DNA from: Mobula hypostoma
Taxonomy: Eukaryota
DNA: 64,000 nucleotides
NCBI RefSeq assembly: GCF_963921235.1
Contig: NC_086108.1
Location: 82,710,001 to 82,774,000 of the forward strand
Direction: 5' to 3'
Shown here one piece after another: positions 5,491-64,000 of the stretch (the first letter of the stretch is position 1; every line of letters begins with the position of its first letter). The notes under the pieces are model-generated. The model was not told the origin of the DNA. It did not search any database and saw nothing but the letters and a program-made list of their open reading frames with translations. Position numbers and translations under genes: made by a program.

Positions 5491-7143
5491 GAATCAGAAT
5501 CAGAATCAGGTTTATTATCACCTGCATGTGTCGTGAAATTTGTTAACTTAGCAGCAGCAGTTCAATGCAATACCTGATATAGAAGAATAAATAAATAAAT
5601 AAAGTAAACTAATTGCAGTATATGTATATTGAATAGCTTAAAAGTTGTGCAAAACCAGAAATAATATGTATTAAAAAAGTGAGGTGGTGTTCACAGATTT
5701 AATGTCCATTTAGGAATCGGATGGCAGAGGGGAATCATGCTCCTGAATCGCTGAGTGTGTGCCTTCAGGCTTCTGTACCTTCTATCTGATGGTAACAGTG
5801 AGGAAAGAGCATGCCCTGGGTGCTGGGGGTCCTTAATAATGGATGCTGCCTTTCCGAGACACCACTCTTTGAAGATATCCTGGGTACTTTGTAGGCTAGT
5901 ACCCAAGATGGGGCTGACTAAATTAATGACTTCCTGCATCTTCTTTCGGTCCTGTGCAGTTGCACCCTCCACCCCCCACCTCCCTCCGCCCCCCCCCCCC
6001 ACCATTCTAGGCAGTAATGCAACTTGTCAGAATACTCTCCATGGTACATCTATAGAAATTTTTGAGTGTTTTTGTTGAAATGCCAAATCTCTTCAAACTC
6101 CTAATGAAGTGTAGCCGCTGTCTTGCCATCTTTATATCTGCATTGATATGTTAGTGTCCTCAGAGATCTTGACACCCAGGAACTTGAAGCTGCTCATTCT
6201 CTCCAGTTCTGATCCCACTGTGAGGATTGGCATGACCTGCTTCGTCTTGCCCTTCCTGAAGCCCACAATCAGCTCTTTTGTTTTACTGACGTTGAGTACT
6301 AGGCTGTTGCTGTGACACCACTCCACTAGTCGGTATTTCTCACTCCTGTATGCCTCTCATCTCCATCTGAGATTCTACCAACAGTGGTTGCAAATCAGCA
6401 AATTTATAGATGATAAACGCAAACAACAGGAATTCTGCAGATGCTGGAAATTCAAGCAACATACATCAAAGTTGCTGGTGAACGCAGCAGGCCAAGCAGC
6501 ATCTATAGGACTGAAACGTCGACTGCGCCTCTTCCTATAGATGCTGCTTGGCCTGCTGCGTTCACCAGCAACTTTGATGTATGTTAATTTATAGATGATA
6601 TTTGAGCTGTGCTGAGCCACACAATCATGGGTATAGAGAGAGTAGAGTGGTGGGCTAAGCACACACCCCTGAGGTGCACCAGTGTTGATCGTCAGCGAGG
6701 AGGAGATATTATCACCAATCTGCACAGATTGTGGTCTTCTGGTTAGGAAGTCAAGGATCCAATTGCTGAGGGAGGTACTGTAGCTTCTCAATCAGGATTG
6801 TTGGAATGATGGTGTTAAATGTTGAGCTATAGTTGATGCACAGCATCCTGACATAGGTGTTTGTATTGTCCAGGTGGTCTAAGGCTGTGTGAAGAGCCAT
6901 TGAGATGGTGTCTGCCATTGACCTATTGTGGCGATGGGCAAATATTAGTGGGTCCAGGTCCTTGCTAAGGCAGGAGTTCAGTCTAGTCATGACCAACCTC
7001 TCAAACCATTTCATCACTGTAGATGTGAGTGTTACTGGGTGATAATCATTAAGGCAGCTCACATTATTCTTCTTGGGCACCAGTATAATTGTTGCCTTTT
7101 TGAAGCAAGTTGGAACTTCCACCCGTAGCAGTGAGAGGTTGAA
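5491..7143 (-). mobile_element. Rex1/Babar LINE, 3' part (split by the CR1 insertion and carrying a PLE insertion at 6416-6585)
   Basis: (CTGATT)n 3' tail at about 5491-5510 on the minus strand. RT motifs FNLSLLRVEVPTCFKKATII, LNDYHPVTLTS and [10 protein letters not shown]. Confidence 0.92.
6416..6585. mobile_element. Fold-back mini Penelope-like insertion with a 15-bp TSD
   Basis: TSD AATTTATAGATGATA at 6401-6415 and 6586-6600. Perfect 53-bp inverted arms at 6458-6510 and 6533-6585. The loop holds the 3' half of the hammerhead (CTGAAACGTCGACTG). Confidence 0.9.
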
Positions 7144-7676
7144 GAAGGTAGTGATAGGGGACTCGATAGTTAGAGGTGCAGATGGAAGGTTCTGTGGTCG
7201 TGACAGAGAATCCAGGATGGTATGTTGCCTCCCGGGTGCCAGGGTCAAGGATGTCTCTGATCGATTGCATGACATTCTGAAGTGGGAAGGTGACCAGCCA
7301 GATGTCGTGGTGCACATCGGTACCAATGACATAGCAAGGAAGAGTGAAGAGGTCCTGGACAGTGAGTATAGAGAGCTTGGTAGGAAGTTGAAAAGCAGGA
7401 CCTCAAGGGTGGTAATCTCAGGATTGCTACCTGTGCTAGGTGCCAGTGAGGGTAGGAATAGGATGCTCTGGAGGAGGAACAAGTGGCTGAGGAACTGGTG
7501 TAAGGGGCAGGGTGTCAGATTTCAGGATCATTGGGACCTCTTCTGGGGCAGGTGGGACCTGTACAAGACAGACGGGTTACACTTGAACCACAGGGGGACC
7601 AATATCCTTTCAGGGAACATACATCAAAGTTGCTGGTGAACGCAGCAGGCCAAGCAGCATCTGTAGGAAGAGGTGC

Positions 7677-7712
7677 AGTCGACGTTTCAGGCCGAGACCC
7701 TTCGTCAGGACT
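7677..7712 (-). ncRNA. Minimal type I hammerhead ribozyme
   Basis: The minus strand reads AGUC-CUGACGA-AGGGUCUCGGCCU-GAAA-CGUC^GACU. Core CUGANGA/GAAA, GUC cleavage triplet, stem I and stem II are all present. Confidence 0.85.
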
Positions 7713-8045
7713 AACTGAAGGAAGAGTGAGTAAGGGATTTGAAAGCTGGAGGGGGAGGGGGAGATCCAAAATGATAGGAGAAGACAGGAGGGGGAGGGAT
7801 GGAGCCGAGAGCTGGACAGGTGATAGGCAGAAGGGGATACGAGAGGATCATGGGACAGGAGGTCCGGGAAGAAAGACGTGGGGGGGGTGACCCAGAGGAT
7901 GGGCAAGAGGCTGCTGCGTTCACCAGCAACTTTGATGTATGTTGCTTGAATTTTCAGCATCTGCAGAATTCCTGTTGTTTGCGTTTAAATTCACTACTGC
8001 GAAGCCTCTTCCGGTGATGCCTACACCGAAGAAGTTTAGATCCTT

Positions 8046-8081
8046 AGTCCTGACGAAGGGTCTTGGCCTGAAACGTCGACT
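8046..8081 (+). ncRNA. Minimal type I hammerhead ribozyme, predicted cleavage after 8077
   Basis: AGUC-CUGACGA-AGGGUCUUGGCCU-GAAA-CGUC^GACU. Confidence 0.85.
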
Positions 8082-8238
8082 GCACCTCTTCCTACAGATG
8101 CTGCTTGGCCTGCTGCGTTCACCAGCATCTTTGATGTATGTTGCTTGAATTTCCAGCATCTGCAGAATTCCTGTTGTTTGCGTTTAAAATCGTTTCAGGG
8201 AGGTTTGTTAGTGCTATTGGGGAGGCTTTAAACTAGAT

Positions 8239-11170
8239 TTGCAGGGGGATGGGAACCAGTGTGCCAGAGCTGACAGTGTGGCTGGGGTGAAAATAAATGA
8301 TGTTGAAAATTTAAGCAAATCTGCTGATAGAAAGGTTGTGAGTGGTGGTAAAAATCTTCTGAGGTGTATATATTTCAATGCTAGGAGTATTGCGGGGAAG
8401 GCGGATGAGTTGAGGGCATGGATTGACACGTGGAATTATGATGTTGTAGCAATTAGTGAAACTTGGCTACAGGAGGGACAGGACTGGCAGCTTAATATTC
8501 CAGGGTTCCGATGTTTCAGATGTGATCGAGGCAGAGGAATGAAAGGTGGGGGAGTAGCATTGCTTGTTAGGGAAAATATTACAGCAGTGCTCAGGCAGGA
8601 CAGATTAGAGGGCTTGTCTACTGAGTCCTTATGGGTGGAGCTGAGAAACAGGAAAAGTATGGCCACATTAGTGGGATTGTATTACAGACCACCCAATAGT
8701 CAACAAGACTTGGAAGAGCAAATCTGCAGAGAGATAGCAGGCAACTGCAGGAAACATAAAGATGTGGTGGTAGGGGATTTTAATTTTCCATACATTGATT
8801 GGGACTCCCATACTGTTAGGGGTCCAGATGGTTTAGAGTTTGTAAAATGTGTTCAGGAAAGTTTTCTAAATCAATATATAGAGGGACCAACTAGAGGGGA
8901 TGCAATATTGGATCTCCTGTTAGGAAACGAATTAGGACAAGTGACAGAAGTCTGTGTAGGGGAGTACTTTGGTTCCAGTGATCATAACACATTAGTTTCA
9001 ATTTGATCATGGACAAGGATAGATCTGGTCCTAGGCTTGAGGTTCTGAACTGGAAGAAGGCCAAATTTGAAGAAATGAGAAAGGATCTAAAAAGCGTGGA
9101 TTGGGACAGGTTGTTCTCTGGCAAAGATGTGATTGGTAGGTGGGAAGCCTTCAAAGGGGAAATTTTGAGAGTGCAGAGTTTGTATGTTCCTGTCAGGATT
9201 AAAGGCAAATTGAATAGGAATAAGGAACCTTGGTTCTCAAGGGATATTGCAACTCTGATAAAGAAGAAGAGGGAGTTGTATGAAATGTATAGGAAACAGG
9301 GGGTAAATCAGGTGCTTGAGGAGTATAAGAAGTGCAAGAAAATACTTAAGAAAGAAATCAGGAGGGCTAAAAGAAGACATGAGGTTGCCTTGGCAGTCAA
9401 AGTGAAGGATAATCCAAAGAGCTTTTACAAGTATATTAAGAGCAAAAGGATTGTAAGGGATAAAATTGGTCCTCTTGAAGATCAGAGTGGTCGGCTTTGT
9501 GCGGAACCAAAGGAAATGGGGGAGATCTTAAATAGGTTTTTTGCGTCTGTATTTACTAAGGAAGCTGGCATGAAATCTATGGAATTGAGGGAATCAAGTA
9601 GTGAGACCATGGAAACTGTACAGATTGAAAAGGAGGAGGTGCTTGTTGTCTTGAGAAAAATTAAAGTGGATAAATCCTCAGGACCTGACAGAGTGTTTCC
9701 TCGGACCTTGAAGGAGACTAGTGTTGAAATTGCGGGGGCCCTGGCAGAAATATTTAAAATGTCGCTGTCTACGGGTGAAGTGCCAGAGGATTGGAGAGTG
9801 GCTCATGTTGTTCCGTTGTTTAAAAAAGGATCGAAAAGTAATCCAGGAAATTATAGGCTGGTGAGTTTAACGTCAGTAGTAGGTAAGTTATTGGAGGGAG
9901 TACTAAGAGACAGAATCTACAAGCATTTGGATAGACAGGGGCATATTAGGGAGAGTCAACATGGCTTTGTGCGTGGTAGGTCGTGTTTGACCAATCTGTT
10001 GGAGTTTTTCGAGGAGGTTACCAGGAAAGTGGATGAAGGGAAGGCAGTGGATATTGTCTACATGGACTTCAGTAAGGCCTTTGACAAGGTCCTGCATGGG
10101 AGGTTAGTTAGGAAAATTCAGTCGCTAGGTATACATGGAAAGGTGGTAAATTGGATTAGACATTGGCTCGATGGAAGAAGCCAGAGAGTGGTGGTAGAGA
10201 ATTGCTTCTCCGAGTGGAGGCCTGTGACTAGTGGTGTGCCACAGGGATCAGTGCTTGGGTCCATTGTTATTTGTCATCTATATCAATGATCTAGATGATA
10301 ATGTGGTAAATTGGATCAGCAAGTTTGCTGATGATACAAAGATTGGAGGTGTAGTAGACAGTGAGGAAGGTTTTCAGAGCCTGCAGAGGGACTTGGACCA
10401 GCTGGAAAAATGGGCTGAAAAATGGCAGATGGAGTTTAATACTGACAAGTGTGAGGTATTGCACGTTGGAAGGACAAACCAAGGTAGAACATACAGGGTT
10501 AATGGTAAGGCACTGAGGAGTGCAGTGGAACAGAGGGATCTGGGAATACAGATACAAAATTCCCTAAAAGTGTCGTCACAGGTAGATAGGGTCGTAAAGA
10601 GAGCTTTTGGTACATTGGCCTTTATTAATCGAAGTATTGAGTATAAGAGCTGGAATGTTATGATGAGGTTGTATAAGGCATTGGTGAGGCCGAATCTGGA
10701 GTATTGTGTTCAGTTTTGGTCACCAAATTACAGGAAGGATATAAATAAGGTTGAAAGAGTGCAGAGAAGGTTTACAAGGATGTTGCCGGGACTTGAGAAA
10801 CTCAGTTACAGAGAAAGGTTGAATAGGTTAGGACTTTATTCCCTGGAGCGTGGAAGAATGAGGGGAGAATTGATAGAGGTATATAAAATTATGATGGGTA
10901 TAGATAGAGTGAATGCAAGCAGGCTTTTTCCACTGAGGCAAGGGGAGAAAAAAACCAGAGGACATGGGTTAAGGGTGAGGGGGGAAAAGTTTAAAGGGAA
11001 CATTGGGGGGGCTTCTTCACACAGAGAGTGGTGGGAGTATGGAATGAGCTGCCAGACGAGGTGGTAAATGCGGGTTCCTTTTTAACATTTAAGAATAAAT
11101 TGGACAGATACATGGCTGGGAGGTGTATGGAGGGATATGGTCCGTGTGCAGGTCAGTGGGACTAGACAGA
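8239..11170 (+). pseudogene. CR1 ORF2 (APE endonuclease + reverse transcriptase) with about 3 frameshifts
   Basis: YFNARSI, ISETWL, VGDFNFP, SDH, PGNYRLVSLTS, QHGFVRGRSC, YMDFSKAFD, GVPQGSVLG and FADDTK, spread over ORFs 8239-9006, 9003-10289 and 10231-11067. Confidence 0.93.
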
Positions 11171-20399: not shown

Positions 20400-21080
20400 A
20401 AGGAAAGTTCTTCCAGGTAAGGCAACATTTCACCTGTGAATCTGCTAGGGTCGTCCATTGTGTCTGCTGCTCCTGATGCGGTTTCCTCTACGTTGGTAAG
20501 ACCCGCCGTAAATTGGGGACCGCTTCGTCGAGCACCTCCACTCCAACCACCAACAGAACTTCCTGGTAGCCAAACATTTTAATTCTGATTCCCATTTCTG
20601 TTCCAATATGTTGGTCCATGGCCTCCTCTTGCGCCATGATGAGACTACCCTCAAGGTGGAGGAGCAACACGTTATATTACATCTCTGTAGCCTCCAGCCT
20701 GATGGCATGAATATCAATTTCTCCTTCTGTTAAAAATATTCCCTCCCCTCTTCTTCTGCTCCCACTCTGGCCTCTTACCTCTTCTCATCTGCCCATCACC
20801 TCCTCCTGGATCCCCACCTTCTTCCCTTTCTCCCATGATCCACTCTCCTCTCCTATCAGATTTTTTCTTCTCCAGCCCTTTACTTTTCCCACCCACCTGG
20901 CTTCACTTATCACCTTCTCTCTATCTTCCTTCCCCTCACCTACCTTTTTATTCTGGTGTCTTCCCCCTTCCTTCCAATCCTGAAGAAGAGTCTCAGAGAT
21001 GCTGTCTGACCTGCTGCGTTCCTCCAGCATTGTGCCTGTATTACTTTGGATTCCCTGCGCCTGCAGAATTTCTCGTGTTG
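20400..21080 (+). mobile_element. Neptune-type Penelope-like element 3' part: GIY-YIG endonuclease remnant, UTR and terminus
   Basis: Translates to FQVRQHFTCESARVVHCVCCS*CGFLYVGKTRRKLG..RFVEHL..VAKHFN..LKVEEQHVILHLCSLQPDGMNI, a Cys-rich GIY-YIG domain typical of Neptune. Confidence 0.85.
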
Positions 21081-35537: not shown

Positions 35538-36660
35538 AGCAACACACAGAAAATGCTGGAGGAAATCAACAGGTCTGGCAGCATCTATGGAAATGTATGG
35601 ACAGTTGACGTTTCGGGCTGAGACACTTCATCAGGAATGGAAAGGAATACGAAAGAATCCCGACAAAGACGGTGGTGGGGGGGGGCCTTGTTGGGAAGTA
35701 GTACAAGCTAGAAGGTAATAGGTGTGGGGGTTGGGGGGGACAAGGTAAGAAGCTGGGAGGTGATAGGTGGAAAAGGTAAAGGACTAGAAAAGAAGAAATC
35801 TCATAGGAGAGGAGAATAGACCACAGGAGAAAGGGAACGAGGAGGGGCACTGGGGGGGGGGGGGTGACATGCAAGTGAGGAGAAAAGAAGAGGTAAGAGG
35901 GAGGCCAGAGATGAGAATTGAAGAAGAAGGAAGGGGAGGAAGAAAAAAATACCAGAAGAGAGAAATTGATTTTGATACCATCAAAATCCCCATTGGAGAT
36001 TTTCCAATGGAATATGAAATGTTACTCCTCCAACCTGAGAGTGGCCTCGTCAAGGAAGTAGAGGAGGCAATGGGAATGGGGATTCGAATTGAAGATGCTC
36101 GCCAAAGCAGTTCCCCCAACCTACATCGGGTCTCACCCACGTAGAGGAGGCTGCATCCGGAGCACCAGATACAGTAGACGACACGAACGCATTCACAGGT
36201 AAAATGCTGTATCACCCAAACAGAGGAGAGGGAGGAGGTGAATCGGCAAGTGTAGCATTTCTTCCGCTTACAGGGATAAGTGCCAGGAGGGAGATTAATG
36301 GGGAAGGTCGAACAGACAAGGGAATCACAAATGGAGTGATCCCTGCAGAAGTAGAGAGTGGGGAGGAGGTAAAGATGTGTTTGGTGGTAAGATTCTGTTA
36401 AAGCAGGCGTAAGTTGTGGAGAATGATGTTCTGGATGCAGAGTCTCATGGGGTGGTAGGTCAGCTCAAGAGGAACTCCGTACCAGTTAAGGCACTAGAAA
36501 GATGGAGTGAGGGTAGATGTCTGGGAAAAGGAGGAAATGCAGCTGAAGGCAACATCAGTACTGGAGGAAAGGAGACCTCATTCTATGAAAAAGGAGGACA
36601 TCTCTGTTGTTCTGGAAAGGAATGCCTCATCCTGGAAGCAGATGCGGCAGAGACTAAGAA
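35538..36660 (-). mobile_element. Neptune-type PLE 3' region (GIY-YIG remnant, UTR, hammerhead with intact core but broken stems at 35602-35639)
   Basis: HFTCECVRVVYCIWCSGCSLLYVGETRCRLG and CTGATGAAGTGTCTCAGCCCGAAACGTC. Confidence 0.85.
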
Positions 36661-38619
36661 CTGATATTGACGATTAAGCAAGGGTGCATGAAGCAGCATC
36701 AATGTAGCACAGAAAGAGCTGGGCAGCATTACTATGGAAGGCCAGGAGCATGGACTGCTCCACATAGCCAACGAAAAGGCAGGCATAGCTGGGGTCCATG
36801 TGAATGTCCATGGCTACAGCTTGGGTTTGAAGAAAGTGGGAGGAGCTGAAAGAGAAATGGTCTTGGCCTGGAGGTGGAGGAGGCCAGGATCAGGAGGCTG
36901 TATAGTTTGTGGTCTGAAGGCGTCCAGGGCCATTAGAACTAGAAATGATGATGGTAGTATCCATGGTTTGGACCCTTCTGGGATCGTTGGAACTGGAGTT
37001 GGCGACTGCAGGATCTGTGGTCTGGAGACCTCCAGGGCCGTTGGATTTGTGAAATCCAATGTGAAATTTGTTTTTTTTTTGTGGCAGAGATACAATGCAA
37101 GACATAAAAATTACTATAAGTTAGAATAAAAAGATCAATAATGCAAAAGGGGAATAGTGAGGTAGTGTTCGTGGGTTTATGGACCGTGAAGCAGGCCATG
37201 CAGAGCACCAATATAACTAGAACAGCATTCAGACATGCGCTGAAATGTGGTAATTAATATCTGTGCTCCACAAATGCCAAGCAACAACCATCTCCAAAAA
37301 GAGAGGATCTAGACTTTAACATTGTACAGCTATGCATTTGTTGAATACGCCACTATCACCAAGTTTGCGTGACCATTCATCAGAAACTTACCTGGAACAG
37401 CCACAAAGCTATTCTGGCAGCAAGACAATATAACTGAATGCCTGACTCTCCAAGGCTTTTCCACCATCTAAAAATATATTCAGGACTGTAGGTGACTACT
37501 CTCAACTAGTACAACAGTTGCATCCATTGCAAAGAATATTACTTTCCTCCCTCTACCAACTCTGTGCATCGTGTGGACTATTGTGACTCAATTATAAAAT
37601 ACATTGCAACACTTATCGATGCTTCTTAATATCTAGATCTTTTCTTAGTGTAATTTCCAGCGTGTAATCGTTTGCTTTTGTTAAGGGAGATGCAACACAT
37701 TTTTGTAAGCAGATAAGCACAGCTTGCATCAGAGAGAATGACAAGATGGAAGAAGGCCAAGTGTCCAGGGTTCATGGAGAACACCAGACCCAATATTCAT
37801 TTTTTTTCTTAAATTTGCTTTGCTCTTCTGATAAAAAATGAGTTCAACAAGGGGGAAGGAGGGTGGAGGGGTGAGCAATAGATTATGAAAGGGTGGAATA
37901 GAAAGGAAGAAAAATAAGTGGAGTACACCAAATAGGGGAGAGATTGAAACTAAGGCAGTGAGAAAATAGAATAATACATCAATAGGAAGGGGGTGAAAAC
38001 AGGATGATCAACCAAAAGGACGCTATTTATTTTTGAGTCTGGCAGAAATCACTCTGCAGGCTCTATTTATTGCCTCTGGTTTACTTAATTATAGTCACTC
38101 CGAATGTAGCCAGAATCATTTAAAACTCATTAATCTTTGTTAATGAAAATACATTCAAGGTTATGAGCAAATGCTATAGACTCATGTAAGTCACCCACCA
38201 CAAAAGAGTAGACAAAGCATGTTAGCAGCAATGTGCCCACTGTGTGTGTGTGTATGGGGGGGCAATATCAGTGTTTCTTTGTGGCAATGATCCAAAGACT
38301 TAATTGCATTGTTCAGAAGGTGACCAAATAAATTACAGCCCTTTGCTGTACATCTTGGCAGGTGAAGGAATCAGGCAATCCCAATGACCATCCAGATCTA
38401 CTCCCTTATTATTCACCTATTGACATAGAGCAACAATGTTAACTGTGAGGATGTGCTCAATAGTTTGATGGTTCAACCATTCAATGGAATGGAAAGGAAG
38501 GAGAGAGACCATGGACTGGATTATCCAAACTGCCATTCCACAGTTATGGGATGAGTAAAATTAATGGGGTTTGTATACAGAGATTGTCAGATCTTCCAAC
38601 CAGCTTCTTTCTAACCACC

Positions 38620-45139: not shown

Positions 45140-45592
45140 TTTACCATATCAGAAAACACCCCTGCCCCCCACCCTTCATTCTACTCAATGAATTTCTTTT
45201 GTCCTCCTCCTTCTCTTCCCTTCCTCTTCTTTCTTCCCTTTCTTCCATGGTGCTCCTCCACCTTCCCTTTTTTCCATCGTCTTCTATCCTCTGCTATCAG
45301 ATTCCCCCTCCTCCAGCCCTTTATATCTTTCACCAATCAGCTTCCCATCTCTTTACTTCACCCCTCCCTGTCTCTCAGTCTCACCTATCACCTACCACCT
45401 TGTTCTTCTTCCTTCCCTCCCCTCACCTTCTTACTCTGACCACATTTTTTTTCCAGTCCTGAAGAAGGGTCTCAGCCCGAAACGTCGACTGTTTATTCCT
45501 TTCCATAGACGTTGTCTGACTTGCTGAGTTCCTCCAGAATTTTGAGTATGTTGCTTTGGACTTCCAGCATCTGCAGTCTTTCTCGTGTTTGA
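45140..45592 (+). mobile_element. PLE 3' terminus
   Basis: Pyrimidine-rich UTR, hammerhead, and CTTCCAGCATCTGCAG..TCTCGTGTTT end. Confidence 0.82.
45454..45491 (+). ncRNA. Minimal type I hammerhead ribozyme, predicted cleavage after 45486
   Basis: CAGUC-CUGAAGA-AGGGUCUCAGCCC-GAAA-CGUC^GACUG, with a 5-bp stem I. Confidence 0.82.
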
Positions 45593-46639
45593 CCGTTTTT
45601 TTTTTGTCTCCTTTGAGTTCTGATGAAAGATCTTCAATCTGAAGCAATAACTCCGTTTCACTTCCCACAGATGTGGCCTAGCCTACTTATTATTTCTAAC
45701 ATTTTCTGTTTTTATTTTAGATTTCCAGTATTTGCAGTTTTTAAAAAAAATTCATTCTATTAAAGAGTGAATCATATTTTATGTCATAAATTACCTGAAG
45801 GGTTTCTGCAACAAGCTCAACGGCAACTTTTCAGCTGGGGTTGGATCAGTTCCAACCATGCATGGGAAAGAACAGGAAAGTAGGACTATGGAGACACAAG
45901 GGACTGTGGATGATGAAATCTGGAATTGGTTAAGCAGATATATGTGAGGAAAGAACTTGTTAACATTTGAAGTTGAAACCCTGCAGTAGGACTGAATGTG
46001 GAGAGGTGAGATGGTCAGCAACAGAGAGGAGAAGGTGAGACACAAGAAGGGATTCCAGGGTGACTGGCAGATGGTGGAGGGGTGTAAGGTGACAGGAAGG
46101 TAGTTCTAGCTAGGGGGGATAAGCAGAGGTGGAGTTGGAAGAGTGAGGTAGGTGAAAGATGGAGGCAGCTGAAGAAAAAGAGGAGAAAGAAAAGAAACAA
46201 AGATGGAGGAAAGTGGGGGAGGGGAGTACGAAGATGGGAGACATTTGCTGGAGCGAGATAAACAGGAACACAAAGTGCTTCCAGAGTTCAGTTCAGCTAA
46301 GTAAAAGAGGTGAGAATTAGAGGGGAGGGGGATGGAGTGGACTACAGCTGGATCCATTTGAGGTGAGGGAGGTGGCGGAATCTGTGTGTGAAGTGGGTCA
46401 TTGGAGCTAGGAAGGGAATGGGACAAAGATGATTGAAAGGAAGCTGGGGTGGTGGTGGGGGAGGTTGGGAACAGGGAAACAAGTGGGAAGACTAGAGGAT
46501 CCGGAGAGGGGAGAAAAGGGTTGGGAGGATTGGGAAAAACGGTGTTTGACTAAAATTGGAAAATGAATGGTGGTGAAGTGACGATAGATACATGGCTATC
46601 ATAGTGATTCTTGGAGTAGGGCTAAGTGATTAGATCTTC

Positions 46640-63804: not shown

Positions 63805-64000
63805 AACAAACAGCAGGAATTTTGCAGATGCTGGAAATTCAAGCAACACACATCAAAGTTGCTGGTGAACGCAGCAGGCCAGGCAACATCTCTAGGAAGA
63901 GGTACAGTCGACGTTTCAGACCAAGACCCTTCGTCAGGACTCAGCCTGAAACGTCGACTGTATCTCTTCCTAGAGATGCTGCCTGGCCTGCTGCGTTCAC
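63805..64000. mobile_element. Fold-back PLE terminus insertion running off the window end
   Basis: Inverted arms at 63865-63919 and 63946-64000. Confidence 0.85.
63906..63941 (-). ncRNA. Minimal type I hammerhead ribozyme
   Basis: The minus strand reads AGUC-CUGACGA-AGGGUCUUGGUCU-GAAA-CGUC^GACU. Confidence 0.8.

Follow-up and report, generated by a model that had tools for sequence, protein, structure and literature searches.

The locus considered here raises the question of whether a 199-nt direct repeat carrying a hammerhead was copied from a small RNA circle, as a retrozyme would be, or belongs to a rearranged Penelope-like element (PLE). The repeat was found in a window of 64,000 nucleotides from Mobula hypostoma (the whole stretch of DNA analysed; NCBI RefSeq assembly GCF_963921235.1, contig NC_086108.1, positions 82,710,001 to 82,774,000 of the forward strand); all coordinates are those of the window. 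On the tested features the locus is a real, ordinary rearranged PLE copy. We consider it likely to be one young Neptune-like PLE insertion in a CR1-type LINE, in which a single private junction has removed nearly all of the body.

As the first-pass annotation had claimed, the block at 7911-7989 is repeated at 8110-8188 with a period of 199, and the whole repeat (7911-8188) extends over 1.4 units. Tandem Repeats Finder, run on the whole window, returned three rows and no array at 7911-8188. The repeat is the forward (right) half of one PLE insertion, 7617-8188, bounded by a 13-nt target duplication. This insertion is composed, in order, of an inverted truncated arm, a partial pseudo-LTR with tail, the body, and a pseudo-LTR with tail; its parts and its host are the following.

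7046..7616, plus strand: host CR1-type LINE, ORF1 esterase region (Pfam Lipase_GDSL_2, E=2.8e-14)
7604..7616, plus strand: left copy of the target-site duplication, 13 nt, identical to 8189-8201 at 12 of 13 positions
7617..7714, minus strand: inverted arm, hammerhead and pseudo-LTR without tail, 96 of 98 positions identical to 8044-8141
7715..7910, minus strand: inverted arm, PLE 3' UTR, pyrimidine-rich and 196 nt long, with an acceptor-like CAG directly preceding the hammerhead flank
7911..7989, plus strand: upstream 5'-truncated pseudo-LTR and tail without hammerhead, 77 of 79 positions identical to 8110-8188
7990..8043, plus strand: spacer of 54 nt and probable 5' end of the body, in which 27 nt precede the ATG at 8017 and MPTPKKFRS
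8043..8044, plus strand: collapse junction, body start to hammerhead flank, placed exactly by comparison with the inverted arm
8045..8082, plus strand: minimal type I hammerhead, matching the min-HHR description in PMC4209133
8083..8188, plus strand: pseudo-LTR and tail on the downstream side, forming the 3' end of the element, with family matches in the window
8189..8201, plus strand: right copy of the target-site duplication, 12 of 13 positions identical to the left copy
8202..10289, plus strand: host CR1-type LINE, ORF2 region, frameshifted (Pfam Exo_endo_phos, E=9.8e-17; RVT_1, E=6.2e-21)

Between the spacer and the second block copy, 8044-8109 is filled by the hammerhead and its flank. 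The segment described at first pass as roughly 55 nt long and joined directly to the hammerhead measures 54 nt and abuts the flank at 8043/8044, and comparison of the arms at this point agrees that it stands where the inverted arm has its pyrimidine-rich 3' UTR. Differences among the three pseudo-LTR copies of the insertion are few (2 in 98 sites and 2 in 79), which would fit a single event. With five tblastn queries no match to an RT/GIY-YIG ORF was obtained in 7617-8188.

The insertion interrupts the LINE between its ORF1 and ORF2 regions, the latter comprising endonuclease and reverse transcriptase, and its flanks resemble an uninterrupted copy near 60.7 kb; from the domain layout we take the host to be of CR1 type. 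The PLE family has 18 matches in the window, the copy at 7617-8188 included, with 71-98% identity, and in hammerhead and pseudo-LTR the young subfamily is 71-89% identical to an older one. Older copies retain a Cys-rich linker and a GIY-YIG region; the linker, a Neptune criterion (PMC3846280), was found in an older-subfamily remnant near 36.2 kb. Homologues of the older copies combine RVT_1 with a sub-threshold GIY-YIG match, and the best protein matches of these copies (65% and 63%) are annotated from Hypanus sabinus, the third being from Leucoraja erinacea. All of this suggests a Neptune-type element.

Several other copies in the window deserve a record. The longest PLE remnant lies at 35965-36862 on the minus strand, with a broken RT end, Cys-rich linker and GIY-YIG region. 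A second young inverted insertion of the same subfamily and layout, with an exact 14-nt target duplication, is located at 6414-6585; the four Rfam matches in the window, all miRNA-like hairpins at 6479-6562, are spurious, because they fall on the hairpin of this inverted PLE insertion. At 45455-45745 one pseudo-LTR is followed head to tail by another at a distance of about 160 nt, and this second one has a decayed older-type hammerhead-like motif; at 20990-21000 an older copy has a deletion of about 30 nt running through the hammerhead cut site.

An inverted truncated arm, a partial tandem and an optional tail are the standard PLE layout (PMC8557442, PMC2377424, PMC8969392). In the Pen2a_Av-type layout the duplication measures 9-10 bp; a PLE derivative that has lost internal sequence, with inverted pseudo-LTRs and a 10-bp duplication, has been described as well (both PMC3846280). 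The insertion 7617-8188 has the partial tandem, the inverted 5'-truncated arm, a tail at one end and the target duplication. It thus resembles EN+ Neptune-type PLEs such as Pen2a_Av (PMC3846280) in its inverted truncated arm, partial tandem pseudo-LTR, optional tail, target duplication, minimal hammerhead within the pseudo-LTR and likely ORF start beside the tail; the Cys-rich linker and C-terminal GIY-YIG are shared by its older relatives in the window. Unlike these elements, it is missing almost the whole body, of which nine codons are left.

Within 7600-8200 each strand has one CUGANGA core: that of the plus strand is at 8050, and that of the minus strand lies in the inverted arm, where the hammerhead core occupies 7684-7708. 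The earlier description of one hammerhead per tandem unit therefore has to be given up: the first block copy has none, because its start lies 33 nt downstream of the predicted cleavage site of the unit. The plus-strand hammerhead at 8045..8082 is made up as follows.

8045-8049 and 8078-8082, plus strand: helix I, 5 bp
8050-8056, plus strand: core CUGACGA, with an extra A at 8057
8058-8061 and 8066-8069, plus strand: helix II, 4 bp, with G-U at the usual G-C position
8070-8073, plus strand: GAAA
Plus strand: helix III, loopless and palindromic, cut predicted after 8077

Chance alone would give 1.36 occurrences of the hammerhead pattern in the window, where 7 are found; Rfam at E<=1 gave no hammerhead family match there. 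A minimal type I hammerhead within the pseudo-LTR agrees with the PLE definition in PMC4209133, and the claim that the repeat is PLE-derived with a type I hammerhead is upheld by the PLE layout together with this ribozyme. The G-U at the base of helix II (8058/8069) in place of the usual G-C belongs to the young subfamily, being found also at 7684-7708 and 63913-63937; some older copies (35610, 45459) have C at this position.

The retrozyme reading assumes a 199-nt circle, cut by the hammerhead and ligated, which was reverse-transcribed 1.4 times round, and we regard it as highly improbable. Its geometry is allowed, with 1.4 units including a single passage over the cut site; PLE tandems have been suggested to derive from circular templates (PMC4209133), and 199 nt falls within the retrozyme unit range of 150 nt to about 1 kb (PMC7229834). 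Like metazoan non-LTR retrozymes (PMC7229834; 10.64898/2026.07.22.740005), the locus is a non-coding direct repeat of a few hundred nucleotides, PLE-derived and with a type I hammerhead. However, retrozymes are defined by two or more consecutive units that each contain a complete hammerhead (10.64898/2026.07.22.740005), and with 1.4 units and a single sense-strand hammerhead this definition fails. Neither is the hammerhead canonical type I (PMC7229834), given its loopless helix III, extra A and G-U pair, although minimal hammerheads are also accepted for retrozymes (10.64898/2026.07.22.740005).

Activity and origin of the RNA speak against the circle too. The minimal PLE-type hammerhead is dimer-dependent, with low or no activity alone and cleavage undetectable as a single motif (PMC4209133), and here the base of helix II is G-U. 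In a read-through transcript the hammerhead at 8045-8082 is predicted to pair with the inverted arm, and folding of the stretch is barely better than that of shuffles (z=-1.6). Moreover, the same insertion holds 196 nt of 3' UTR outside the proposed circle, so the circle cannot supply that part. Unlike a retrozyme, the repeat is part of a larger inverted PLE insertion, for which a linear template accounts for everything. The 199-nt period itself follows from the pseudo-LTR, body, pseudo-LTR layout with a collapsed body. With one minimal hammerhead and the 3' UTR lying outside, the proposal of a retrozyme or 199-nt circle is not supported. Retrozymes are derived from pseudo-LTRs and have been reported in one chondrichthyan, with a mean of 363 bp (10.64898/2026.07.22.740005); the supplements of that work may list related units.

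What the body once was may be indicated by the spacer, 7990-8043, which has no match longer than 11-13 nt in the rest of the window. Its 3' part reads, from the ATG at 8017, as nine codons translated as MPTPKKFRS. Among 56 long homologues, 27 carry a conserved N-terminal motif, and in 23 of these 27 a Met stands 30-48 residues before it. The N-terminus begins with MP in 11 of the 23 (three of them MPTL), compared with Pro after 2% of 654 internal Met, the 23 being related proteins and not independent samples. The spacer is probably the start of the element body, and from this comparison MPTPKKFRS is likely to be the N-terminus of the ORF.

Direct protein searches gave no closer relative. BLASTP of a 36-aa spacer frame against one full-length homologue was not significant; a 40-aa spacer frame yielded three candidates, none at E<=10, and a degenerate frame of the window 254 candidates, none at E<=0.001. 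A search with P0003 returned 54 long homologues with 24-49% identity, none of which is a member of the young subfamily. Exact patterns gave no matches, for the spacer in metagenome and in viral contigs, and for the pseudo-LTR in metagenome and in prokaryote genome contigs. In one published supplement searched with the spacer peptide and DNA, two unrelated 10-nt matches were the only result. Protein and exact-pattern searches thus found no full-length member of the young subfamily.

The stretch 7860-8109 was also compared with contigs from 4 of 23 sequencing runs, all 23 consisting of assembled contigs and not raw reads: X1 and X6 are from organism A, X5 and X13 from organism B (one sample), and X19-X23 were left out for small or no word share. 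The spacer is covered in all four runs. Its summed depth reaches 1.4% (X1) and 1.6% (X5) of the hammerhead peak, which is not a copy number. One variant letter at 8012 is present in 13 contigs of X1 and 9 of X5. Among the contigs listed, passage from tail to spacer is seen in four variant contigs from three runs, with just 26-30 letters on the tail side, below the 31-letter bridging rule. The spacer is multi-copy in two organisms. A multi-copy, much rarer sequence following the tail would be expected of full-length 5' ends in a family where most copies are truncated.

We infer the following course of events for the collapsed PLE insertion. Reverse transcriptase would most likely have begun at 8188, the tail end, and passed through pseudo-LTR and hammerhead before falling off at the 5' edge of helix I. 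Copying would then have restarted at codon 9 on the pseudo-LTR/ORF-start stretch of element RNA and proceeded through the spacer, the tail and part of the upstream pseudo-LTR, as far as 7911; the inverted arm would have been made from a template still having the 3' UTR. Alternatively, a later DNA deletion of the body would have left an identical sequence. On this best reading the insertion is a dead, non-coding copy, and no circle is needed. In vitro, reverse transcription by one PLE was shown to begin at the two tail ends on uncleaved RNA and to require the ORF-start region (PMC11167929).

The place of the proposed break is shared by other copies. Apart from the copy at 8044 the window has 15 short arms, and four of these (780, 1012, 57731 and 63941) start at a distance of 2-4 nt from this edge of helix I. 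An inverted arm clearly adjoins three of them, and the fourth has a possible remnant of one. The excess has P=0.014 under a uniform null chosen after the data had been seen, and about 4 of 15 short-arm starts are merely the points where the alignment of an old copy gives out. For these arms and for 8044, helix I may have a breakpoint hot spot at its 5' edge, a position that doubles as an acceptor-like site.

Whether the junction at 8043/8044 is private bears on the choice between the two options that the first-pass annotation had offered beside the circle, a non-autonomous mini-PLE and a one-off template switch, and this was the right pair to weigh. A mini-PLE would have arisen by a single deletion, then been copied in trans by its parent into many loci. 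We judge this unlikely. The collapsed form keeps the tail, hammerhead and pseudo-LTR/ORF-start region needed in vitro (PMC11167929), and non-autonomous PLE derivatives have been described (10.64898/2026.07.22.740005, PMC8557442). On the other hand, none of the 32 contig pieces listed crosses 8043/8044; a minor family could sit among the 71,999 further pieces. The sequence before 8044 is usually 3' UTR (126, 54, 22 and 15 contigs in the four runs), and the 3' UTR flank known from the inverted arm is the commonest loose end before 8044 among those listed in all four. An unshortened template existed, because the inverted arm of this very insertion has a normal 3' UTR, which again argues against a mini-PLE.

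Depth along the spacer bears on both options. In X5 it falls toward 8043 as 1, 0.77, 0.42 and 0.18, compared with 1, 0.73, 0.45 and 0.21 at a cut end, a taper like that of a pure edge, which speaks against amplification; since the fall matches that at a cut end, most spacer copies would continue into other sequence. The taper in X1 is shallower (fourth bin 0.43 against 0.34 for a pure edge), which would suit a mini-PLE, and in X13 and X6 the depth is flat over 8022-8039. Word matching reached a plateau of 28 of 33 words (share 0.85) in three runs of organism A, where 5.4 missing words are expected if both junctions of the locus are absent and 2.7 if one is. This lies nearer to the absence of both and weakly favours junction absence, with a likelihood ratio of about 2.5, against an amplified mini-PLE.

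Two further kinds of contig data were set aside. The depths in X13 (records 11-14 summing to 158.2, with +98 from 8013) had been considered to prove a departure of the main path from the reference at 8043, and this argument was dropped because junction-crossing pieces under 59 nt would not appear among those listed. Skip-type joints into 8044-8058 were not used as breakpoint evidence, most being recorded as "between: not known". As a separate observation, one X5 contig of depth 310 (flank-bearing contigs there have 17-31) joins 7957 to 8046, tail to hammerhead flank, via one letter. The joint implies that units of about 112 nt, each with a hammerhead, follow one another head to tail in organism B, and as judged from the contig this repeat is a better retrozyme candidate than the locus at 7911-8188.

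The same junction could also have been made by splicing. A cryptic donor after codon 9 would have been joined to the acceptor before the hammerhead, and the resulting ORF-less RNA of about 200 nt reverse-transcribed and reinserted by the PLE machinery; we hold this to be quite unlikely. The right breakpoint has a pyrimidine tract with CAG immediately before it, so that an acceptor AG stands at the breakpoint; among 3,683 positions of PLE remnants in the window, 13 (0.35%) have such a context. The loose-end consensus has the word TACTAAC 11 nt before the junction in X1, X5 and X6 (three of four runs), a word that corresponds to the branch-point consensus. In older hammerheads with native flank, YAG at helix I is kept in 6 of 7. 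There is also a precedent: an intron of D. virilis Penelope ends at helix I (PMC4209133). Tract, YAG and a TACTAAC-like word in the young subfamily together suggest that the pseudo-LTR has an intron comparable to the one in D. virilis Penelope (PMC2377424, PMC4209133), where an acceptor-like site lies at the same 5' edge of helix I; unlike here, the site there closes a 75-nt intron within the pseudo-LTR. The pyrimidine tract and YAG precede the hammerhead at 7715-7740 (minus strand) and at the older copies 26558, 34905, 41135, 42672, 45455 and 51738.

Against splicing stands the donor side, where the exon would end in TCC, a poor context given that donor exons typically end in MAG. A continuation after 8043 with a GT donor was found neither among the loose ends listed nor in the searches, and records 13 and 14 of X13, two contigs only and of a variant subfamily, have a letter other than C at 8043. 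The inverted arm retains the acceptor unspliced, and other arms break at the same edge beside inverted arms, not exons, so a breakpoint hot spot would explain the position of the junction without splicing. PLEs are also reported to keep their introns on transposition (PMC3846280, PMC2377424).

In the open-access literature we found no report of the young subfamily or of a spliced PLE copy. If splicing did produce the junction, an element class known to retain its introns would here have yielded a processed copy, and an autonomous PLE could turn in one step into a mini-element of retrozyme size that possibly amplifies. On the preferred reading of a collapsed PLE insertion the locus matters little, as another rearranged PLE copy among many in this genome, and it cautions that two pseudo-LTRs brought together by a collapse look like a retrozyme unit. 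Should the junction prove to be spliced or amplified, it would bear on which RNA PLEs copy (spliced, unspliced or antisense) and on the origin of retrozyme-sized units from PLEs.
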